Positions 21,382 to 53,179 of a stretch of DNA of 64,000 nt are shown piece after piece. The stretch spans positions 1,024,001 to 1,088,000 of the forward strand of contig CAXXXD010000002.1 of assembly GCA_963663385.2 (NCBI GenBank), given 5' to 3'. How positions within the stretch are numbered: position 1 is the first letter of the stretch; each line of letters begins with the position of its first letter. The DNA is from Oceanispirochaeta sp. GTDB taxonomy: Bacteria; Spirochaetota; Spirochaetia; DSM-2461. The notes beneath the pieces were generated by a model. The model did not search any database and was not told the DNA's origin. It saw nothing but the letters and a program-made list of their open reading frames with translations. A program made the translations under genes and the position numbers.

Positions 21382-21707
21382 TTGAGGAAATTGTATGCAT
21401 CAAGCGGGAGAATAGCCCTGTATTATAGTAAATTTAATATGTTTTCTATAAAATGAACCGCAAATCAGCAAACGTTTATTTACGGGAATATTTTTTGTAT
21501 TTTTATCGGTCGCTGCAGGGGATGTCGAACTCTATTCCACTTAGAATTCCAAAAGGGGAAAATTATGCATTCTGTATGCACGCAGTGTGCATTCCTGTCC
21601 TGAAGCCGGCTGGCTTGCGGCATTGTTCAAATCACATCTTTACATTGACTTATCATCAAAATGTTGGTTAAATAATATTTTACTCTACTAGAGTTATGCC
21701 CATTTAT

Positions 21708-43240: not shown

Positions 43241-45029
43241 CAACTGTATTCCTCTCCGGGAGGATGTCCCCTCCGGGGATAAGTGGGACCTTTCGTCACT
43301 TTTCGTCAGCGAAGAAGCCTGGGAGGAGGGGCTGGAAACCTTTGAAAAAATGATACCTGAAATTGCCGGGTTCAAGGGTACCCTCGGCGAATCGGCGGAA
43401 CAGCTGAAAGCCTGTCTGGATTTTTTCAATGATCTGGAGATCCTTGAGGAGAGGCTGGGGTACTATGCCATGCTCCGCAAGGAGGAAAATGTCGGGGACA
43501 GCAGCGGTTCCGGCCGGATGGCCCGTTATATGAGCGTGGCAACCAGAAGCAGCGCGGAAGCCGGATTCCTGAAACCGGAGATCCAGAGCTTGAGCGGGGA
43601 ACAGCTGGACCGGTATCTGACGTCTCCTGTTCTTGAGGAATTCCGGATCTCGTTAAAGAAACTGATTCGTTACAAGCCTCATATCCTCTCAGAGAAAGAG
43701 GAGGTTCTTCTGGCGAAACAGTCCGAATTCGCCCAGACGGCCCGGAAGGCCTTTTCCGCTTTAACCAATGCGGATCTGGAATTCGGTTCTCTTCGATCGG
43801 GAGGAGAAGAAAAACCTCTTACCAACTCAACCTTCGGGGTCTTTCTGCTGGATCCGGACAGGGATGTTCGAAAAAAAGCGTTCTCACAGTTCTACAAACA
43901 GTTTGAAGGGCATAAAAACACCCTGGCTGAACTCTACTCCGGCAGTGTTTTAAAGGATATCTTCTCAGCCAGAATCAGAGGATTTGAAACAGCCCGGCAG
44001 TCCAGCCTGTTTCCCGATAATGTTCCCGAATCGGTTTATGATAATCTGGTGGAATCTGTCGGAGATAATCTGGAACCTCTTCACCGCTACTATGAACTGA
44101 GGCGAAAAGTCCTCTCTCTGGATAAGCTTCACCTCTACGATACAAAAGTGTCCCTTATTCCGGATGTTAAAGTTCGCCACAGTTATGATGATGCCGTGGG
44201 TAAAGTACTCGAGTCTCTGGGACCCCTGGGGGAAGAGTATGTATCCACACTGCAAAGCGGTCTGACCGGTGGCTGGGTAGACCGGTATGAGAATAAGGGA
44301 AAACGATCCGGCGCTTTCTCGGCGGGGTCCTACAAGGGCGATCCCTACATCCTGCTGAATTTCAAGGAAGACGATATCCGGGATGTTTTTACCCTTGCCC
44401 ATGAGGGAGGCCACTCCATGCACTCCTGGTACTCGGTGCGCAACAATCCTTTTCAGGACTATAACTACACCATATTTGAGGCGGAAGTGGCTTCTACCTT
44501 TAATGAGCAGCTGCTGGCCAGATACCTGCTGGAACAGACCGGGGACAGGGATATGCGTCTGTATCTGATCGGCAGGCAGGTGGATGACATCCTGGCTACC
44601 ATATACAGGCAGACCATGTTTGCAGAGTACGAACACACATGTCACTCCCTGGTTGAGGGGGGCGAGGCTCTTACCATTGAAGTATTGAGGAAGGAGTACC
44701 GGTCTCTGCTGGAGAAATACTTCGGTCCGGCCGTCGTGCTGGACGAAATGGCAGACCTGGAAGGTTTGAGAATACCCCATTTCTACAGCGCTTTCTATGT
44801 TTACAAATACGCTACGGGTCTTTCTGCCGCTATGGCTCTGTCCGAAATGGTTCTGGAGGGGGGGCAAAAGGAACAGGCTGATTATTTGAACTTTCTGAAG
44901 TCCGGGGGCTCCCGTTTCCCTCTGGACTCACTGAAGCTGGCAGGTGTGGATATGTCTTCTCCCGAACCGGTTAACCGTGCCCTGAAACGGTTTGCTTCCC
45001 TTGTGGAGGAGCTTGAAAGTTCTTTGTAG
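43230..45029 (+). CDS. pepF: Oligoendopeptidase F
   Basis: KWDLS, GKRSGAFS, HEGGHSMH, AEVAST, HFY..FYVYKYA. Confidence 0.95.
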   Translation: MNNNNCIPLREDVPSGDKWDLSSLFVSEEAWEEGLETFEKMIPEIAGFKGTLGESAEQLKACLDFFNDLEILEERLGYYAMLRKEENVGDSSGSGRMARYMSVATRSSAEAGFLKPEIQSLSGEQLDRYLTSPVLEEFRISLKKLIRYKPHILSEKEEVLLAKQSEFAQTARKAFSALTNADLEFGSLRSGGEEKPLTNSTFGVFLLDPDRDVRKKAFSQFYKQFEGHKNTLAELYSGSVLKDIFSARIRGFETARQSSLFPDNVPESVYDNLVESVGDNLEPLHRYYELRRKVLSLDKLHLYDTKVSLIPDVKVRHSYDDAVGKVLESLGPLGEEYVSTLQSGLTGGWVDRYENKGKRSGAFSAGSYKGDPYILLNFKEDDIRDVFTLAHEGGHSMHSWYSVRNNPFQDYNYTIFEAEVASTFNEQLLARYLLEQTGDRDMRLYLIGRQVDDILATIYRQTMFAEYEHTCHSLVEGGEALTIEVLRKEYRSLLEKYFGPAVVLDEMADLEGLRIPHFYSAFYVYKYATGLSAAMALSEMVLEGGQKEQADYLNFLKSGGSRFPLDSLKLAGVDMSSPEPVNRALKRFASLVEELESSL

Positions 45030-45031
45030 GG

Positions 45032-45087
45032 AACCCTCTCCCCAGTTCCCTCTCCCAGGGGGCGAGGGGAATCAAAGGGGTGAGGGT
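45032..45087. repeat. BoxC-like palindromic repeat, type 2
   Basis: ACCCTCTCCCCAGTTCCCTCTCCCAGGGGGCGAGGGGAATCAAAGGGGTGAGGGT. Confidence 0.75.
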
Positions 45088-45100
45088 GACGGCAGGTGTT

Positions 45101-45769
45101 CTACTCCTGCCGGTACCAGTCCATTTTCTGGCCTATCCTGCCGGCCAGTTCTTCCATATCCTTGTCGGTATGGTACTCCATGCCTGCCCGGCTCATGGAA
45201 ATTCCTCCATCCTGATCCCGCAGCCGTATGGCGCTGTGGTGGGTTGCTTCAAGGGGAATCCTGATTCTTCCCCGGGGATCGCTTATATCAAGGGTGCCGT
45301 TACAGAGACAGAAGTAGGTTGTCCGGTTGTCTTCTTTTTTTATGAAAAAAGACGTTCCTCTTACACCTGCTATTACATTCCCGGATTCTATGTGAAAAAG
45401 ATCGTCTTCCTTTTTCAGGAGGGTTTTTATATTCCTGAGAACAGCCGCCGCAGTTCCTCTCTCTACGTTCACCATAGCTTCCGAGAAGGATATTCTCATA
45501 ATGGTATCATCGAAAATCCTGATGATATTGCTGCCCAGAAATGTAATTTCGCAGTATCCGTTCTCATCCGTCTGGAGAATCGATCCATCAGGCACTTTTG
45601 CCCCGACCAGTACCGGATTTCCATTGATAAGAACACTCCCTTCCAGTCCGATTACAGATCCCTGAACAGAGGAGGACTGGACATTGCCGCTATTTTTTGA
45701 AGGAGAACAGGAAAGTCCAAATATCAGTAAAAAAAACATCAAAAGATAAAAAAAACGCATTTTCTTCAT
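45101..45769 (-). CDS. FecR-domain lipoprotein
   Basis: Lipobox GLSC; AGVRGTSF motif. Confidence 0.75.
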   Translation of the reverse strand: MKKMRFFYLLMFFLLIFGLSCSPSKNSGNVQSSSVQGSVIGLEGSVLINGNPVLVGAKVPDGSILQTDENGYCEITFLGSNIIRIFDDTIMRISFSEAMVNVERGTAAAVLRNIKTLLKKEDDLFHIESGNVIAGVRGTSFFIKKEDNRTTYFCLCNGTLDISDPRGRIRIPLEATHHSAIRLRDQDGGISMSRAGMEYHTDKDMEELAGRIGQKMDWYRQE

Positions 45770-45869
45770 AATTCAGATCTCCCCATACCTCGAATTGTAA
45801 GATAAAAAGCTTTTATATGGAAAGGAAATAAGGGATTTCTTCATTAAAATGGTTTTTGTATAAAATAGT

Positions 45870-45899
45870 TTGACAACATGGAGTCATATTCGTTACCAT
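45870..45899 (+). promoter_or_regulatory. sigma70 promoter of the 45942 gene
   Basis: TTGACA-18-TACCAT; predicted TSS about 45906-45907. Confidence 0.65.
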
Positions 45900-45941
45900 T
45901 TCTACTATTGAAACAAACTTAATAACATTGAGGAGAAATTA

Positions 45942-46919
45942 ATGAAGAAATTATTAGTTCTGCTAATTCTTATTTCTTTCACAGTCGGCGTATTTGCCGA
46001 CGATGCTCTGGTTATGCCCGAGGGTGTAATCCGCGCCTATTTCGTCGGATCATACGGGATGACCGACAGTGCATATGATTCTGACGGAGAAGAACAGGAT
46101 TCTGATACAGGAGAAACCAAATTCTTTAATCAGGGATATGCTGTGGAACTGGGTGTAACCGATTCCATTACAGCAGCCCTGCAGTGGGTTCCCGGGCATA
46201 ACCTCTATTCGGATGTCGAAAATGCTGAAGACGTTGAGCTTTCGGGAGCTTATGATCTGTTTGCGGGTGCCAAAATCCAGATCCTCGGAGATCATGGTTT
46301 TGTAAAGAACGATCAGTTCCGTTTTTCAATGGCTCCCGGTTTCAGAATCCCCCTGGATTCCTATGATGCGGTAGAGGAAGCTGAAAACTATTTGGCTGGA
46401 GATTCCTACAGAGCTTCAGGTGTGTCAAATGAGTCTCTCGGAATCGGTTCAAGGATTTACTTTGACTACATTGTAAATGAAAACTTTTTCCTGAACCTTT
46501 ACAGTGAAATTATCTATAATATTCCCGTTGATAAAACGTCTGCAGATCTTGGAGCTGATGCGATCGGGGCTGCTATGATGGGTACAGATCTTGATGAATT
46601 GGAGTATAAATACGGAACCGATATGGTTTTCGAATTTGAACCCCAGTACAGCTATTCTGTAACAGACAAGAGTTCTCTGAAATTTTACCTGCCCGTTAAC
46701 TATGCCATTACACAGGATGTTGAAGTGGAAGGGGAAAAAGTGGATGATTCCGGCAGCAAATATCTGCAGCTCCGACCCGGACTCGGTTACTTCTGCGGCG
46801 ATTTCAAGGTTCCCTTTGAAGCTTCCGTACAGTACGGTCTTCCCCTTATGGGTGAAAATACAGCAAAGATGCATACCATTGTTTTCAAGCTGAAAGTATA
46901 CGCCAGACTGTGGGAATAG
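45942..46919 (+). CDS. Outer-membrane beta-barrel protein (predicted sRNA target)
   Basis: Signal peptide ending VFA; amphipathic beta strands with an aromatic girdle; terminal strand VFKLKVYARLWE; SD GAGGAG. Confidence 0.7.
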   Translation: MKKLLVLLILISFTVGVFADDALVMPEGVIRAYFVGSYGMTDSAYDSDGEEQDSDTGETKFFNQGYAVELGVTDSITAALQWVPGHNLYSDVENAEDVELSGAYDLFAGAKIQILGDHGFVKNDQFRFSMAPGFRIPLDSYDAVEEAENYLAGDSYRASGVSNESLGIGSRIYFDYIVNENFFLNLYSEIIYNIPVDKTSADLGADAIGAAMMGTDLDELEYKYGTDMVFEFEPQYSYSVTDKSSLKFYLPVNYAITQDVEVEGEKVDDSGSKYLQLRPGLGYFCGDFKVPFEASVQYGLPLMGENTAKMHTIVFKLKVYARLWE

Positions 46920-46944
46920 AAATCTGATTTAATCTTTTGATTGA

Positions 46945-46998
46945 AGCCGTCCTTCCCCTCGACTTTGCTCGGGGATCTTGAGGACGGCTGTTTTATTT
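46945..46998 (+). terminator. Terminator with a REP-like unit in its loop
   Basis: AGCCGTCCT...AGGACGGCT-GTTTTATTT; the loop contains CCTCGACTTTGCTCGGG. Confidence 0.65.
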
Positions 46999-47065
46999 AT
47001 AAATTGAATTTGTTTCTGGTTTCTGAACACATCGTGCCGAGCATAGCCGAGGTAAAGTCAGGGGA

Positions 47066-47704
47066 TCAGGCTCTGATGGCGGAAAGCAGAAGCGAGAACA
47101 TGGTTTTAATCAGGTCGTCATCATTGACGTTCATGCTGGCCTTTATCCAGCTCTTGCGGACATATATTTTCTGCATGGTCGCCTGAATCATTGTCAGAAT
47201 TGTAACTGCCATTTCCCGGGGATTACTGATTTTCCGGATGGATCCGTCATCAATTCCCATCTGTATGGTTTTTTCGATATCCATAGTCAGCGCATTCAGA
47301 ATCCCCAGGCATTTCCGGGCATCTTCGCTGGGGCTGTCCATGAAATTGATCTTCTGGTCCAGTAGCAGGGTAAAGACAAACTGATTAAAATGGTCTTTGT
47401 AGTATTCCAGAAAGGTGTTCTGTATCACTTCCAGCTTTTTCAGCCCTGTTGCATGTTTGGAGTCAAAAGACTCTCTGAACATCTCCTTCAGCTTTGCATA
47501 GGATTCCAGCATAATGATATAGGAAATCTCTTCCTTGCTTGTAAAGTAGTGATAGAGGGTTCGTCTGCTCAGTTCCGCCTGTTCCGCTATGTTCAGCATG
47601 GTTGTGTTTTCATACCCCTTGGACATGAACAGTTCCCTGGCTGCGGTCAGTATCTCACGGACCCTCTGGTCTTTTTCTCGTTGTTTGCGTTCTGCTATTC
47701 CCAT
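47066..47704 (-). CDS. TetR/AcrR family transcriptional regulator
   Basis: ILTAARELFMSKGYENTTMLNIAEQAELSRRTLYHYFTSKEEI HTH. Confidence 0.93.
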   Translation of the reverse strand: MGIAERKQREKDQRVREILTAARELFMSKGYENTTMLNIAEQAELSRRTLYHYFTSKEEISYIIMLESYAKLKEMFRESFDSKHATGLKKLEVIQNTFLEYYKDHFNQFVFTLLLDQKINFMDSPSEDARKCLGILNALTMDIEKTIQMGIDDGSIRKISNPREMAVTILTMIQATMQKIYVRKSWIKASMNVNDDDLIKTMFSLLLSAIRA

Positions 47705-47767
47705 TTCCCTAGTTAATTCCGCTTATTGGTATTTGTCAAGGCTGATTACCGATCTGATCAGATGCAG

Positions 47768-47837
47768 AAAAAAAATGGCCGGATATTTCAAATTGAAACA
47801 AACTTAATAACATTAAGGAGAAATATCCAGCCGATAT
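47768..47837 (-). ncRNA. Candidate trans-acting antisense sRNA (about 70 nt; single stem, 30-nt loop, U-tail)
   Basis: AUAUC-GGCUGGAUAUUUC-UCCUUAAUGUUAUUAAGUUUGUUUCAAUUU-GAAAUAUCCGGCC-A-U8; 33-nt complementarity to 45907-45939; promoter immediately upstream. Confidence 0.75.
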
Positions 47838-47872
47838 GCACTTATGATACAGCAACTACACTCAGAGTGCAA
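47837..47872 (-). promoter_or_regulatory. sRNA promoter with two overlapping putative TetR operators
   Basis: TTGCAC (47867-47872)-17-TATCAT (47844-47849); TACAC-TCAGA-GTGCA at 47857-47871 and TGCAC-TTATG-ATACA at 47837-47851. Confidence 0.7.
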
Positions 47873-47888
47873 TTGCTTTTTTGATAAA

Positions 47889-49337
47889 TTAGAAATTGTA
47901 GGATACAGTGAATTCTACAAAATCATTTTCATCATACTGGCCGAAAAGGGTATCCTCGTCGCCCCCGAAAAAACGGGCTGCCATTCCCAGGGTGAAATCA
48001 TCAACCGGTGAGTATTCGATGGAAGGATAAATCCCATAATCAGAGTCTTCAAAATGATAGAATGTGATCAGTTCCGCTTCCAGTTTTTCGTGAAGGTATT
48101 TATCCGATACGGCGAAGATCAGAAGGTTCTCTGTGTATTCCTTATCTTCATCATACTCAATATCACCCAGCCCAATCTCATTTGAATTCAGAGTGAGGGT
48201 TCCCGCTTCCTGAATATTGATGTTCAGGTTACTTACAGGAATGTCTCTGTCAAATCCTGCCACCCACTTAATACTGTTGTTATGAACATCTGTCTTATTT
48301 CCGTCAAAGTCTTCGGTCAAATTGCAGGCAAATTCACCCTTCAGGTTAAATTCGGCCAATATACAGGCCGCTTCAACGCCGAAGGTCTGCATGGGGTCGT
48401 ATTCAAACCAGTAGTTAATCGTGTCCACACCATCAAAGGCGTAATTGAAACTGGGGAGTTTGTTGTAACCGTAGTAGTAGGTGAATCCGTAGTCCAGACC
48501 GCCGGCGGTTGACGTATAATGCATAGCTCCCTGACCATAATCAAATGTATTGATGTCGGATCCGGCAAGAGCCGTTATGCTGGGTGTTACCACAGCACCG
48601 GTCTGTGCGTAGATGGCGGCTGCCGTCTGGGACGCAATCGCCTGCAGTGTCGCGGGGAGCTCAACTTTGGTATTCAGGGGCTGCCAGATGCCCGCTTCTG
48701 CATAACTGTAGGGAGTCAGTGTGGGAACATAGGCCAGTTCCAGCATACCGGACATCCCCAGGGGAACATTAACCTTGAGCATCAGTTCGGGATCGATCAT
48801 CTCCATATAGTCGGGGATGAGGAATTCGCTCAGATTGACGCTGTTCAGAACATCTACCACATGGAACTCATCAGCTTTTCCCCAGACGACTTTCATATAT
48901 CCCGCTTCGAAGTTCATCTTCTCACCGAAATACTGTCCATAGGCTTCGTTGACAGTCACCACGGAATCCCGTTCGCTTCCAGTCATTTCGGGGGTGATAT
49001 CAACATCGGTAACGACTTTGAAATCACTTCCTTCATAGGTAAAACTGAGATTGGCTGCAATAGAGGTTTCCATCTGATCCAGACCGGCTTCTCTGTCGGC
49101 CATATCATCCCTTGCATCTTCAGAGGCAAAAGCTCTTACAGAAGTGGTTACTCCTCCGTTTACTTCAACGGCGGCAGTGTTCTCATCACCAAAGGCGGAA
49201 TCTCCAAAGGCAGAGTCGCCAAAGCCGAAGTCTTCTGATTCGGAGTCTTCGAACCCCGATGTGAAGAAGGAATCATCGGCCCGGAGACCGGTGCTCAGAA
49301 CCAGTGATGCTGTTAACAGTACCAGTATTTTTTTCAT
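47889..49337 (-). CDS. Outer-membrane beta-barrel protein of an MMPL/LolA-like transport operon (DUF1302-like)
   Basis: Signal peptide; acidic Phe-rich N-tail; NEAY...GYMKVVWGKAD...VDVLN; C-terminal FTVSYNF. Confidence 0.7.
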   Translation of the reverse strand: MKKILVLLTASLVLSTGLRADDSFFTSGFEDSESEDFGFGDSAFGDSAFGDENTAAVEVNGGVTTSVRAFASEDARDDMADREAGLDQMETSIAANLSFTYEGSDFKVVTDVDITPEMTGSERDSVVTVNEAYGQYFGEKMNFEAGYMKVVWGKADEFHVVDVLNSVNLSEFLIPDYMEMIDPELMLKVNVPLGMSGMLELAYVPTLTPYSYAEAGIWQPLNTKVELPATLQAIASQTAAAIYAQTGAVVTPSITALAGSDINTFDYGQGAMHYTSTAGGLDYGFTYYYGYNKLPSFNYAFDGVDTINYWFEYDPMQTFGVEAACILAEFNLKGEFACNLTEDFDGNKTDVHNNSIKWVAGFDRDIPVSNLNINIQEAGTLTLNSNEIGLGDIEYDEDKEYTENLLIFAVSDKYLHEKLEAELITFYHFEDSDYGIYPSIEYSPVDDFTLGMAARFFGGDEDTLFGQYDENDFVEFTVSYNF

Positions 49338-49339
49338 TC

Positions 49340-50110
49340 CTATCTCCCTGTGTTCAGAAACTGGGTTGTAAACATATTGCTGTTAACAGGTTTATCGAAT
49401 TCTACATTCAGTACTTTCATCTCTGTAGCGTGGCCGTTCTGAACATTATCAATACGGGTCAGGATGGGAGTCCAGTGACCGTCAATGTTTTTAAGCTGTT
49501 TAACCGACATTACCTTGTAGAGATTCTCCTGCTTGTCGTACATCTCGATTTTAACGGGGGTCCAGGTTTCCTTGTCGAACCAGGTCAGACGGTAGGCATA
49601 CTGGGAATCGGCAGGATCCACGGCTTTGCCTTTTACTACGTAACAGTTCCATTCGGAAAATGATTCTTCCCGGATCAGTTCGTGTGTGTCCCGGTCAAGA
49701 TCACGGGTTTCCATATCGTCATAGGAGGCATCAGAACCCATAAAAGACTTGCTGCCGTCAGAAGTAGAGATCCGGCGGACCCTTTTCATGGCAGGCAGGT
49801 AAATCCATTTGTCATCGGCTCTGTCTTCATTCTGTACCTGCAGGAACCGTGTGTTTTTTACACTGGCGGGGCTTCTGAAAACCATTATGCTGCTGGCAAG
49901 GTCGTTCTCTTCCATACCCCACTGTTCGATCATTCTGGAGGAAACATTTCCTCCCTCTTCAATCAGGTCCATCTGCAGGGCCATATGGGTTGTATCAGGT
50001 TTGTCCCTGTTGTCATAGTTCCGGGCTACTTCAAGGCCGGTTATGGCAAATAGGGAAGGTGATACCAGCAGCAGGGCCAGTCCTGTTAAATTACTTATTG
50101 TCCTTTTCAT
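49340..50110 (-). CDS. LolA-like outer-membrane lipoprotein-sorting family protein
   Basis: FRSPASVKNTRFL, WIYLPAMKRVRRI, FMGSDASYDD; located between MMPL and OMP genes. Confidence 0.8.
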   Translation of the reverse strand: MKRTISNLTGLALLLVSPSLFAITGLEVARNYDNRDKPDTTHMALQMDLIEEGGNVSSRMIEQWGMEENDLASSIMVFRSPASVKNTRFLQVQNEDRADDKWIYLPAMKRVRRISTSDGSKSFMGSDASYDDMETRDLDRDTHELIREESFSEWNCYVVKGKAVDPADSQYAYRLTWFDKETWTPVKIEMYDKQENLYKVMSVKQLKNIDGHWTPILTRIDNVQNGHATEMKVLNVEFDKPVNSNMFTTQFLNTGR

Positions 50111-50134
50111 AATAATCCTCCGGATTTATTTTTT

Positions 50135-50324
50135 ACCCTTTCCCTGCCCTCTCCCGGAAGGAGAGGGTTCAAGAAGAAGTAATATATGCTTTGTTTTTCT
50201 CCCCTCTCCCTCCGGGAGAGGGGCTGGGGGTGAGGGCCTCTGTTCAAGGCCCCTCTCAGTCTCCCCGAAGGGGAGATGCAATCTGTTGTCAGCTCCCCTC
50301 CTACGGAGGGGACGGGGGAGGTCC
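50135..50324. repeat. Two tandem BoxC-like elements (type 2 then type 1) inside the operon
   Basis: CCCTCTCCCGGAAGGAGAGGG...CCCCTCTCCCTCCGGGAGAGGGGCTGGGGGTGAGGG, then GTCTCCCCGAAGGGGAGA...CCCCTCCTACGGAGGGGACGGGGGAGGTC. Confidence 0.85.
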
Positions 50325-53075
50325 TTACGCACTCTTCTTCCGTTTTCCCTCGCTGTCTTTTCCTCCCTTTCCGCTTGTATCCCTGCTGATGAATTTCGGT
50401 TTGAAAATATTCAGCAGGGCAGGCAGTACCGTCAGGGCTGCAATGGAAGATGTTCCCATGATGATTGCCACCAGGGCTCCGATAAAACGGAGTACAACAA
50501 ACTTTGAAAAGATGAGTACCAGAAATCCCAGACCTACAGAAACCGCATTTGTAATGATGGCCTTGCCGGACGACATAACAGTTTCTTTCGTTACTGTATC
50601 CAGGTTATCCGACTTGAGCCGTTCAATTTTATAGCGGCTGAGAAAGTGTATGGTGTAGTCTACGCCGACACCAATGGCAATTGAGGCGATAAGGGCTGTT
50701 ATCATATCCAGATTTATCCCTGTTAATCCCATAATTCCAAAGTTGATCAGGATGGCCAGGAAGAGGGGCACAATCCCGTAAAATCCTGCAAAAGGAGACC
50801 GGTAGGCAATGGATACAATCAGGAATACTGCAACAAGGGCTGTGAGAAGGCTTTTGATCTGGGATCCTGTAATCATATCGGTCAATGCTTTTACCAGTTC
50901 CGCAATTCCCGAGTTTTCAATGGTAATGTTATCGGGGAAATGGGCATCGGCATAACTGTTGATATCTTCCAGAATCTCGGCGCAGACTGCTGTATCGGAT
51001 ACTTTCAGCTGTACGAGCATTCTAACCTGTGTGGGTTCCAGAGAATCATCGGAGAACTTGTCCAGTGAGCCTGAGTAGAGAAGCAGGTACTGGGAGATCA
51101 GGTTTTTCAGTTCCTCATTGGAGGCGGCAGGATACTTGGAAAGATCCGTGGGGATTTCGTAATAGGCTTTTCCTCTGACATTAAAAGCTTTTTCAACTTC
51201 GCTGGTCAGATCCGCAATGGTAAAATTGCCGTCTCCATTTTCATTAACCACCTTTCTGGCCAGGTCGATAAGGGTGGCCCATGTCAGGTCATCTGTCATG
51301 GAAAGGGGCTCGAAGGTCACAGGCGAGGCTTCCGTCAGTTCTTCGCTGTCATCGCCGAAGAAGGAACCTGAGTCAGAATCATCATCACTGAAGAAGGATG
51401 AGTTCCCCTCGCTGTCATCGCTGAAAAAGGACCCTGAATCAGAGTTGTCATCGCCGAAGAAGGAACCGGCTTCTACACTTTCGTAGTCGTCATAGCTTCC
51501 AAAATCCTCAGAACCCTCTTCTACGGGAAAATTCATTACCTGATTCATCCTCTTGATGAAATCGGCATATGTCATGATTTTCCCGATATCTGGATGGGTT
51601 GTCAAAAGATGCTTTTTCAGGTTATCCATCTCATTCAGAACCAGGGGATCAATCACATCACCGGGATTTTCCCCTTTTACAACAATGTTGAATGTGTTGG
51701 TTCCGGCGAAATGATCAGAGATATAGTCGGCATTAACCCGTAGAGAGGAATCCTTGGGAAAGTAGTCGATCAGGGCGCTTTCGATATTCATCTGAGTCAG
51801 CCCGTAAGCGGAGATAAGTACGATAGCTATTGTAATAACTAGAATCCCCGTTCTATGGCTGGATAATCTGTTATAAACCGCTTCCATTCTTTTATGAGAG
51901 TGGTCTTCTCTTTTCTTTATCTTGGCCTCCAGAGCAGATTTATCCTTAAGGACTTCCCTGTCTTTATAGGAGATGATCATCAGAGCCGGAATAAAGGTAA
52001 GAGAAAGAACTAAAGCTATCACCGTACCGATTGTTGAAAAAAGACCGAATGTCTTGAGAGGAACAATGGGGCTGGTTATGATGGAGGAAAAACCGACAAT
52101 CGTCGTAAATCCGGCCAGCAGAACAGGTTCCAGAACCAGATTCACTGAGGAAATTACTATTTCCTTATGCTCCTGAACGGAAACCCTTTTTTTCTGATTG
52201 CGCATGTCCGTGTAGTAATGGGTCATTACATGGATACCGTACGCGCTGCCGATTGCAATAATCAGTACGGGCAGACAGGTTGATACAATACTGAAAGCCA
52301 CATCGAAAAGAGCCATGATTCCTACGGTCCAGATTGTCGTAATCATTACGGTTATCATGGGAAGCAGAGTTCCTCCCAGGCGATGGAAGGCGAAGTAGAG
52401 GCTTAACAGAAGTACAAGCAGTACCAGCGGGATAAGGGCTGTCAGGTCTGCTATCATGAAAATCTCAGCATCGTGGGAGATAACAGGATCTCCGGCAACA
52501 CGGATGTCCAGCCAGTCGTAGTTTACAGAATATTCGACAATCCCGTCATAGATGGCATTTTTTTCCGCATGATTGGCATCCTTGTTTACTACAACCAGAA
52601 TCTGAGTCGATTTAAAGTCTCTGGAATAAAGGCTGTTTTCATACATGTCCGGCCAATCCAGAAGGTTGGTTTTCAGCTGAGCCAGCTCTTCCTCTGTTCC
52701 TGTAAAATCGTCTCTGATAAGGGGTTCGACAATCATACCTTCCGATGAACCATCAGGAAAATCCGTATTCAGTATGGATGTAAGGTCATCAACTACCGGA
52801 TTGGCTTCCAGAATTTCAGAAATTTCCCGTATCGCCTGGATCGTTCTGTTGTTGAGAAAGGTTCCATCCTTTTCGGTGATGCAGATATCAAACATGATCT
52901 GACTTTCATACACATCGTCCAGTGCTTTCATCCTTATATAGGAATCATGGTCTTCGGGGAAAAACGCAAGGACATCATTATCCAATACAACTTCAGGGAT
53001 TTGAATCCCCATAAACACTGTAACAGCCAGTACGATTAAAATTATAATCCATGGCTTTTTTAAAATATTCTTCAC
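50325..53075 (-). CDS. RND superfamily/MMPL transporter
   Basis: Two repeats of a large periplasmic loop plus TM bundle; IAIGSAYGIH and IAIGVGVDYTIH; GTG start. Confidence 0.9.
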   Translation of the reverse strand: MKNILKKPWIIILIVLAVTVFMGIQIPEVVLDNDVLAFFPEDHDSYIRMKALDDVYESQIMFDICITEKDGTFLNNRTIQAIREISEILEANPVVDDLTSILNTDFPDGSSEGMIVEPLIRDDFTGTEEELAQLKTNLLDWPDMYENSLYSRDFKSTQILVVVNKDANHAEKNAIYDGIVEYSVNYDWLDIRVAGDPVISHDAEIFMIADLTALIPLVLLVLLLSLYFAFHRLGGTLLPMITVMITTIWTVGIMALFDVAFSIVSTCLPVLIIAIGSAYGIHVMTHYYTDMRNQKKRVSVQEHKEIVISSVNLVLEPVLLAGFTTIVGFSSIITSPIVPLKTFGLFSTIGTVIALVLSLTFIPALMIISYKDREVLKDKSALEAKIKKREDHSHKRMEAVYNRLSSHRTGILVITIAIVLISAYGLTQMNIESALIDYFPKDSSLRVNADYISDHFAGTNTFNIVVKGENPGDVIDPLVLNEMDNLKKHLLTTHPDIGKIMTYADFIKRMNQVMNFPVEEGSEDFGSYDDYESVEAGSFFGDDNSDSGSFFSDDSEGNSSFFSDDDSDSGSFFGDDSEELTEASPVTFEPLSMTDDLTWATLIDLARKVVNENGDGNFTIADLTSEVEKAFNVRGKAYYEIPTDLSKYPAASNEELKNLISQYLLLYSGSLDKFSDDSLEPTQVRMLVQLKVSDTAVCAEILEDINSYADAHFPDNITIENSGIAELVKALTDMITGSQIKSLLTALVAVFLIVSIAYRSPFAGFYGIVPLFLAILINFGIMGLTGINLDMITALIASIAIGVGVDYTIHFLSRYKIERLKSDNLDTVTKETVMSSGKAIITNAVSVGLGFLVLIFSKFVVLRFIGALVAIIMGTSSIAALTVLPALLNIFKPKFISRDTSGKGGKDSEGKRKKSA
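51348..51467 (-). repeat. Coding 33-bp tandem repeat, four units
   Basis: Encodes GSFFGDDNSDS-GSFFSDDSEGN-SSFFSDDDSDS-GSFFGDD. Confidence 0.85.
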
Positions 53076-53112: not shown

Positions 53113-53179
53113 TGCACTCTTGATTAATAAAATGCACACCCTGTGCAATTAATGTATAAAATAAAATCTAAAAGGTCAA
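53113..53179 (-). promoter_or_regulatory. MMPL operon promoter with tandem putative TetR operators
   Basis: TTGACC (53174-53179)-17-TACATT (53151-53156); perfect TGCAC-ACCCT-GTGCA at 53133-53147 over the TSS; half-site TGCAC at 53113. Confidence 0.75.

Follow-up and report, generated by a model that had tools for sequence, protein, structure and literature searches.

A candidate antisense small RNA complementary to almost the entire leader of an outer-membrane protein gene in Oceanispirochaeta

INTRODUCTION

Why should a bacterial genome hold a second copy of a gene's leader, from the transcription start to the ribosome-binding site, with no gene behind it? The question arises in a 64,000-nt stretch of DNA from Oceanispirochaeta sp. 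(contig CAXXXD010000002.1, positions 1,024,001 to 1,088,000; hereafter the window), where the leader of an outer-membrane protein (OMP) gene recurs 1.9 kb away, within the loop of a hairpin encoded on the opposite strand. A preliminary description, made from the sequence of the window alone, had proposed that the hairpin belongs to a small RNA (sRNA) that covers the ribosome-binding site of the OMP mRNA and blocks its translation. Here, we follow up this proposal by a DNA search of 40 related genomes and with a covariance model that was built from six copies of the element and run over 38 genomes of the family. We put at about 0.7 the probability that positions 47837-47768 on the minus strand are a stand-alone sRNA gene whose product would act as an antisense translational repressor of the OMP leader; every prediction of this reading that could be tested by sequence comparison came out as predicted.

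RESULTS

The leader copy lies in the loop of a minus-strand hairpin

The two copies of the direct repeat, at 45907-45939 and 47792-47824, are identical at 32 of 33 positions, with 0 such repeats expected (100 shuffles), and a search of the 5.3-Mb genome with up to three mismatches returns these two sites and none besides. Furthermore, a BLAST comparison of the 40 nt before each of the 7026 open reading frame (ORF) starts found no second nearby leader-only copy in the genome; the other matches were whole-gene duplicates, low-complexity runs and paralogous coding sequence.

The first copy belongs to the putative target gene (45942-46919, plus strand), which encodes a 325-aa OMP with a signal-peptide-like N-terminus and a Phenol_MetA_deg domain (PF13557; 29.3 bits, cut-off 22). 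The promoter of this gene, TTGACA-18-TACCAT at 45870-45899 on the plus strand (10 of 12 matches in a consensus scan, with a layout common to four orthologous loci), places the predicted start near 45906-45907. The repeat, which begins 7 nt after the promoter, therefore runs from about +1 through the Shine-Dalgarno (SD) sequence (AGGAG, 45931-45935) to 2 nt before ATG 45942, the extent that the preliminary description had assigned to it. The same region has a perfect 13-nt inverted repeat (45835-45847/45939-45951), the right arm of which spans the OMP start codon and the left arm of which lies upstream of the promoter; chance recurrence of 'ATGAAGAAA' (MKK) start motifs probably accounts for it, with about 0.1 such repeats expected at random in this 3.5-kb region.

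The second copy is intergenic, between two minus-strand units, the end of an MMPL exporter operon and a TetR-family gene, and occupies the 30 nt between two complementary arms. Specifically, an inverted-repeat search and a six-sequence alignment define a 5' arm at 47820-47832 and a 3' arm at 47777-47789 (13 nt each, 92% complementary, minus strand), while the loop at 47790-47819 carries the anti-leader sequence, whose complementarity (47792-47824) enters the stem by 5 nt. Within the large loop, the fold and the alignment place an inner hairpin of 6 bp with a 3-nt loop (47803-47817), and on the minus strand the outer stem is followed by an A and then by a U8 tract (47775-47768, A8 on the plus strand). 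The predicted sRNA of about 70 nt (47768-47837, minus strand), with a start near 47837 placed from the −10 element and a 3' end in the U8 tract, is thus modelled as essentially one hairpin: 4-5 nt of 5' tail lead into the 13-bp stem, which is closed by the 30-nt loop and followed by the U tail. Like an intrinsic terminator, it has a G+C-rich stem (13 bp) with a U tract (U8) directly after it; the 30-nt loop is atypical.

The single mismatch of the repeat (G45930 versus A47815) becomes a G-U pair in the duplex of a minus-strand sRNA with the plus-strand mRNA, and the sole imperfection of the stem (C47780/A47829) is a G-U pair on the minus strand only. The minus-strand RNA folds with a predicted energy of −20.2 kcal/mol (z = −4.8, 200 shuffles). 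In its minimum-energy fold, 13 consecutive nucleotides on the 3' side of the loop stay single-stranded. Of the anti-SD, only 2 nt are unpaired, the remainder lying in the outer stem and the 6-bp inner hairpin. The coordinates, the repeat, the hairpin with its tail and the two strand-specific wobbles of the preliminary description were all reproduced, while its 'exposed' anti-SD was not.

Upstream of the hairpin, a −35 hexamer (TTGCAC, 47867-47872) precedes by 17 nt a −10 hexamer (TATCAT, 47844-47849) on the minus strand. This predicted promoter, which had been pointed out from the window alone, is retained as TTGCAC-17-TAnnAT in five of five orthologous loci: the −35 is identical in all of them, and the −10 stands at the same place in the other four as TAGAAT/TATAGA, TACAAT, TACTAT and TACTAT.

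No ORF follows the second SD copy, as had been claimed: ATG 47836 meets a stop after three codons. A 55-aa ORF (47844-48011) begins 23 nt beyond this SD, and its equivalent in the related genome G010 is, by eye, without an ATG near the SD copy. A 25-codon ORF readable in the sRNA of the genome of the window (G000) was rejected as a source of a peptide because its ATG is not kept in the relative G007. A cmscan search of 44000-50000 on both strands (E <= 1) matched no Rfam sRNA family, including MicF and MicC; such a search had been suggested beforehand as a check of novelty. The same search gave an Antizyme_FSE match at 45031-45074 on the minus strand (24.6 bits against a gathering score of 40, E = 0.06), which we take as chance.

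The sequencing runs compared comprise one RNA run (share 0.07) and three of six runs of unrecorded kind. The RNA contigs, from a related organism, cover only 46490-46852 in the OMP coding region and are uninformative on transcription of the sRNA; the three other runs cover the stretch throughout and differ from it at 0-3 positions, with the sRNA and the leader free of differences.

The OMP leader is the best predicted partner among 7026 ORF starts

In G000, the OMP start ranks first of 7026 ORF-start windows for a duplex with the sRNA, at −43.1 kcal/mol versus −24.7 for the next window (mean −10.8, sd 3.4), as the preliminary description had anticipated. Together with identity at 32 of 33 positions, this rank indicates a complementarity to the ribosome-binding region beyond chance. 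Furthermore, the joint fold of the sRNA with the leader is 28.8 kcal/mol more favourable than the two folds taken separately, and in it the upper end of the sRNA stem is open.

Loop and leader co-vary in three lineages

Between lineages, the OMP and TetR proteins are 39-50% and 41-54% identical, whereas the hairpin is 78-88% identical at the DNA level. In particular, a 36-nt stretch of the loop region is identical at 36 of 36 positions between G000 and G010, versus 69-70% for coding DNA. In an alignment of the intergenic region of G000, G010 and G007, the only conserved blocks are the −35/operator, the −10, a GTG(C/T)A directly downstream of the −10, the hairpin and the T-run; the spacer between the T-run and the TetR promoter is unconserved.

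The outer stem points to the minus strand as the transcribed one. Across the six sequences, 78 of 78 outer-stem cells pair as minus-strand RNA, versus 71 of 78 as plus-strand RNA; the seven cells concerned are G-U on the minus strand and A-C on the plus strand, which widens the bias first seen in the single imperfect stem pair of the window. Because these cells derive from about four independent events, we regard the strand test as suggestive, not strong. Both sides have changed in four outer-stem pairs and in one inner pair, the latter from A-U to U-A in three of the six sequences. The covariation score was reached by 0 of 500 shuffles, and slid controls pair at 33-52% versus 99% for the true register.

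Co-variation of the loop with the target leader had been set beforehand as a test of the antisense proposal, and it is seen in three diverged lineages, in each of which the loop best matches the leader of its own genome. Specifically, loop and leader of G007 both carry one T>C and one C>T substitution together with an inserted C, while G002 and G001 have other changes common to both, with a match extended further 5'. The two copies differ from each other by single-base bulges, wobbles and indels. Cognate pairs have predicted duplex energies of −43 to −51.5 kcal/mol; combinations within one lineage lie at −45 to −49.5 and those across lineages at −26.5 to −41.2. Comparison of the three lineages shows at least six intermolecular columns in which both partners have changed. 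In each of the five genomes, the first complementary position lies 4-7 nt beyond the target −10 and the last one 2-6 nt short of the ATG, indicating that the pairing tracks the transcribed leader and not the promoter DNA.

These limits bear on a different explanation, that both 33-nt copies are DNA sites of one protein, bound for example via CTTAAT-AAC-ATTAAG, and that the hairpin is incidental. The repeat does contain this 6-3-6 palindrome, which changes symmetrically between lineages and in the OMP promoter lies just after +1, a usual position for a repressor. However, the similarity extends over 33-38 nt, mostly outside the palindrome, beginning at the predicted transcription start and ending at the SD. 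Indels within the palindrome in G007 and G002/G001 would alter the spacing of half-sites but only bulge an RNA duplex, the palindrome is degenerate in the G007 leader, and the seven G-U cells of the outer stem are strand-specific. At the sRNA locus the palindrome would occupy roughly positions +25 to +40 of the sRNA, some 65 nt ahead of the TetR −35, where nothing obvious would be controlled, and the locus has a better operator candidate in TGCAC-N5-GTGCA, described below. We consider paired DNA sites improbable, if the least improbable of the alternatives.

The element accompanies the OMP gene through three gene orders

With the covariance model, full-length matches of 71-98 bits are found in G000 (two copies) and in four other genomes, G010, G002, G001 and G007 (88-98 bits); none of the other genomes among the 38 gives a full-length match above 33 bits, and the other five genera give none at E <= 0.01. 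Partial matches of 31-34 bits in G000, G010, G001 and G002 are the reverse complements of the OMP leaders, that is, the targets themselves. Weak matches in G005 and on contig 45 of G010 were set aside as ordinary hairpins without the loop sequence. Within the genus, the element and the OMP orthologue occur in the same five of 11 genomes, and neither was found in the other six. OMP homologues in two other genera have unrelated leaders, and the three loci mapped there, all from one genus, have different neighbours.

An exact-pattern scan of genome contigs returned 18 stretches, with the element only in L039 (98 bits) and L049 (91 bits), both titled as spirochaete metagenome-assembled genomes; the rest score at most 20 bits. 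The candidate L045 proved to be an unrelated signal-peptide gene whose leader happens to carry the same palindrome and SD. In a scan of metagenome contigs, none of eight stretches has the outer stem or a tblastn match to the OMP, and those inspected by eye resemble the SD contexts of other genes.

Four OMP homologues from other genera, L065 (G019), L071 (G023), L068 (G014) and L067 (G042), are without the sRNA. They have in common a TTTACACA-type motif just upstream of TTGACA, in G042 as the full palindrome ACACATT-N5-AATGTGT, which hints at direct transcriptional control in those genera.

The second copy in G000 is an unlinked paralogue at C2:884422-884501 on the plus strand (locus L033, about 1501-1580; 71 bits), flanked by methyltransferase-like and PabB-like genes that were named by eye from their translations. 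Its hairpin is kept via three compensatory (double) stem changes and its anti-SD reads UCUUCUU; the upstream region is different, without the TGCAC palindrome and the TTGCAC promoter. The best predicted target of the paralogue is the same OMP leader (−36.1, rank 1 of 7026).

Three gene orders are found around the element. In G000 and G010, the OMP gene faces, on the opposite strand, the TetR gene, the sRNA and a DUF1302-like-DUF1329-MMPL operon, in this order from the OMP gene outward. In G007, the operon precedes the OMP gene on the same strand, and the TetR gene, the sRNA and another gene (251 aa) follow on the opposite strand. In G002 and G001, the OMP gene is followed by the sRNA and the TetR gene on the opposite strand, and then by the operon on the strand of the OMP gene. 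Throughout, the element stays beside the TetR gene and less than 2 kb from the OMP gene. A plus-strand ORF beside the G002/G001 element was considered as a divergent regulator and dropped: it lies between the sRNA and the end of the minus-strand TetR gene and is too short.

In the window, the operon (47889-53075, minus strand) encodes, according to domain searches, an MMPL/RND (HAE3-like) protein, a LolA-like/DUF1329 protein and a 482-aa protein with a lead to DUF1302. The end of the operon and the sRNA −35 are 17 nt apart, and transcription of the operon should therefore be terminated by the sRNA hairpin as well; a terminator scan limited to loops of 3-8 nt found no terminator between the stop of the 482-aa gene (47889) and the hairpin. 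The preliminary suggestion that the sRNA could also arise from the 3' end of the MMPL mRNA therefore fits G000 and G010; it does not extend to G007 and G002/G001, in which another gene lies upstream and the element does not follow the operon. The 482-aa protein itself (47889-49337, minus strand) matches nothing in Pfam or NCBIfam, lax thresholds included. A protein atlas leads from it to DUF1302 clusters (score 0.98), in which 10-29% of members carry the family, and its C-terminus, ...SYNF, is common for outer-membrane barrels.

The hairpin might accordingly be nothing but the intrinsic terminator of the upstream gene, namely the MMPL operon in G000/G010, the 251-aa gene in G007 and the TetR gene in G002/G001, with the leader-like loop a functionless leftover of a local duplication. 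A co-directional gene does end just upstream in all three arrangements, and the stem with U8 is terminator-like, with no other terminator detected after the 47889 stop. A functionless loop would not, however, stay identical between G000 and G010 while coding DNA diverges, nor would a useless one follow the changes of its cognate leader in three lineages, and the exact co-occurrence with the OMP gene would go unexplained. Furthermore, a promoter and an operator-like site are conserved directly upstream, and the hairpin is retained in G002 although only 3 U are left of its U tract (G010 and G007 have 8-9 U, G001 has 5; four of the five loci have the hairpin with a tail of 5-9 U). A mere terminator is, on this evidence, a shade less probable than paired DNA sites.

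An equally doubtful alternative makes the element a leader or attenuator of the TetR mRNA in G000, G010 and G007, where pairing with the OMP leader would open the terminator, allow read-through into TetR and so pass information from the OMP mRNA to TetR. Promoter, hairpin and TetR gene do follow one another on one strand in three of the five genomes, and the complementarity reaches 5 nt into the stem, so that pairing would compete with the terminator. In G002/G001, however, the element lies downstream of TetR, and in all arrangements TetR has its own conserved promoter of the TTGACA-17-TTAACT type, 6 nt before the ATG. In the window, the TetR gene thus appears leaderless, with TTGACA at 47739-47734 and, after a 17-nt spacer, TTAACT at 47716-47711, ending 6 nt short of ATG 47704; G010, G007 and G002 are arranged alike.

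The sRNA and exporter promoters carry the same palindrome

An operator-like palindrome, TACAC-N5-GTGCA (47857-47871), overlaps the −35 hexamer of the sRNA. A site of the TGCAC-N5-GTGCA type is found at the sRNA promoter in five of five genomes (9-10 of 10 core positions matched); the MMPL operon promoter has one too in all four genomes in which that promoter lies within the contig (the G010 contig stops short). Specifically, an exact palindrome lies directly after the −10 of the MMPL promoter in G000 (53133-53147) and in G007, while the divergent TetR/MMPL region of G002 and G001 has two palindromes each, with one mismatch apiece, one of them directly after the −10. The 5.3-Mb genome G000 has two exact palindromes and 40 with at most one mismatch, about 11 of the latter in a repeated element.

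A palindrome over the regulated promoters and beside a regulator gene, the arrangement of an operator, is thus present at the sequence level. The TetR-family regulator encoded at 47066-47704 (minus strand), which adjoins the sRNA in every arrangement, is the proposed palindrome binder, and because the same palindrome stands at the sRNA and MMPL promoters, we propose that TetR would release both together. We hold this TetR link with lower confidence than the antisense repression.

Two further palindromes of this type, at 21577-21591 in the window and at G000:C2:623371-623385, are both intergenic, one exact and one with a single mismatch and consensus-like flanks; the C2 site is followed, after about 75 nt, by an ORF for a 311-aa membrane protein. 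Both may be more members of the same regulon. A 23-nt string with a near-palindrome recurs identically at about 11 places in G000 (e.g. C1:362204, C2:511231 and C3:58780), presumably as a repeated or mobile element.

DISCUSSION

A repressor that would work through the whole leader

The antisense reading gives an answer to the question posed by the locus: the second leader copy would be kept because its transcript pairs with the first. Together, the loop and the upper end of the stem form an antisense copy of almost the whole leader of the OMP gene, from transcription start to SD. In the mechanism that we propose, the 13 exposed loop nucleotides would first contact the free 5' end of the mRNA, and pairing would then zip through the inner hairpin to the SD, opening the stem at its top. 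With about 33 bp, the duplex so formed would block ribosome binding and would probably be a substrate of RNase III. Release of the TetR repressor would co-induce the exporter operon and the sRNA, and the Phenol_MetA_deg channel would be silenced. In G000 and G010, where the hairpin should also end the operon transcript, the antisense loop may come both from its own promoter and as a 3' untranslated region (UTR). We read the element as a TetR-gated, MicF-like repressor that would turn the channel off when efflux is on.

With regard to accessory factors, the Hfq Pfam model has no match in the genome of the window (98% complete) and does match in five control genomes, while an RNase III gene is present. 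A long duplex should make a chaperone unnecessary, and the sRNA is probably Hfq-independent; the presence of RNase III, with no Hfq found, fits a chaperone-free, long-duplex mechanism.

Several observations weigh against this interpretation. That the sRNA is transcribed is something we infer from sequence comparison. The promoter hexamer TTGCAC fits the sigma-70 −35 consensus TTGACA at only three of six positions, which is why a consensus scan misses it, and the hairpin escapes a terminator scan because that scan permits loops of 3-8 nt only; neither sRNA promoter nor terminator is therefore listed. Indeed, for an intrinsic terminator the loop, at 30 nt, is large, and G002 (3 U) and G001 (5 U) have weak U tracts. 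A co-directional gene lies upstream in every arrangement, so the RNA could come solely by read-through and processing. As for pairing, the anti-SD is mostly paired inside the sRNA, and three helical turns are impossible for a closed loop unless the 5' end of the mRNA threads through or the stem opens. At two of the core positions where loop and leader differ, the duplex would have U-U mismatches instead of wobbles, and with only three independent lineages the co-variation counts rest on few events and related sequences. Gene conversion of direct repeats 1.1-1.9 kb apart would also keep the copies alike; the indels between them argue against a recent event of this kind. Finally, TetR is proposed as the palindrome-binding protein from its adjacency only.

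Least probable of all is that the sRNA is real and acts mainly otherwise, as a sponge, as an activator or stabiliser of the OMP mRNA 5' end (a duplex at the extreme 5' end can protect an mRNA from 5'-end-dependent decay) or on other mRNAs through its anti-SD, for which many weaker partners are predicted at −22 to −25 kcal/mol: no other genomic site nears the score of the leader, and in all five genomes the duplex covers the SD, so that initiation should be blocked.

Relation to known systems and possible origin

The pairing proposed here resembles that of CopA/CopT and RNA I/RNA II, in which long, near-perfect pairing starts by hairpin-loop recognition between complementary small hairpins, independently of a chaperone and with likely RNase III cleavage. 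The likeness lies in the length of the pairing, in the presentation of the recognition sequence in a loop and in the small hairpins of both partners. Those antisense RNAs are, however, transcribed from the opposite strand of their targets, whereas the antisense copy here is a separate gene 1.1-1.9 kb off, so its complementarity must be kept by selection. MicL, CpxQ and DapZ are sRNAs derived from 3' UTRs that share the terminator of an mRNA, and in G000/G010 the hairpin is likewise predicted to terminate the upstream operon and has an internal promoter immediately ahead of it. Unlike in those cases, the upstream gene differs in G007 and G002/G001, and the element is therefore not tied to one parental mRNA.

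In its genetic layout the element is closest to sRNAs of the MicF/MicC/MicA type: it is encoded apart from its target, beside another envelope gene, and would cover the ribosome-binding site of an outer-membrane channel mRNA. MicF is co-induced with efflux by MarA/SoxS/Rob, the same logic of efflux up and channel down. As described in PMC7355843, the MicF gene stands apart from that of its target and beside a gene for another envelope component, and the sRNA stops translation of a porin mRNA by pairing where the ribosome binds. The present element differs from MicF in several respects: its pairing is near-perfect over about 33 bp and the whole leader, whereas that of MicF is short and imperfect; its seed lies in the loop of the only hairpin of the RNA; no Hfq gene was found; and its proposed control is a TetR-type operator instead of AraC/OmpR-type activators.

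The use of a terminator loop as seed has a counterpart in an organism, Helicobacter pylori, that is without Hfq. There, according to PMC8295292, the terminator loop of RepG pairs with the 5' UTR of the target; RepG has a second stem-loop and binds a G-repeat via a short C/U stretch. The loop described here is instead a 30-nt copy of the target's own leader, including the anti-SD, and no homology is implied. We regard the element as a new family of sRNA within a functional kind that is already known. Among literature titles and the openings of abstracts on spirochaete sRNAs and the outer membrane, or on TetR, sRNA, efflux and porins, no paper on such an element was found.

How the gene arose can be addressed only tentatively, and the scenario that follows is one to which we give somewhat less than even weight. 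The sRNA may have been born when the target leader was copied into the loop of an oppositely transcribed terminator hairpin, and may since have moved with its target and the TetR gene, as a self-contained cassette of the form exporter on, channel off, through at least three rearrangements and one duplication. It would act without Hfq, by threading of the mRNA 5' end and by a full-leader duplex that unwinds its own stem. If this origin is true, the element would be an unusually clear and datable case of a trans-acting sRNA arising from its target, and a minimal, one-hairpin design of a specific translational repressor.

If the antisense reading is true, free-living spirochaetes would have a regulatory sRNA whose target is defined, a case for which we found no precedent in literature titles and abstracts, and the element would extend the logic of MicF to a distant phylum, with a TetR-type repressor as the proposed input. 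The three co-varying lineages amount to natural compensatory mutants, and together with the simple, one-hairpin anatomy they make the locus a convenient system for the origin of sRNA genes and for long antisense pairing without Hfq. For the organism itself, the Phenol_MetA_deg channel and the MMPL-DUF1329-DUF1302 exporter would then be functionally opposed parts of one hydrophobic-ligand pathway.

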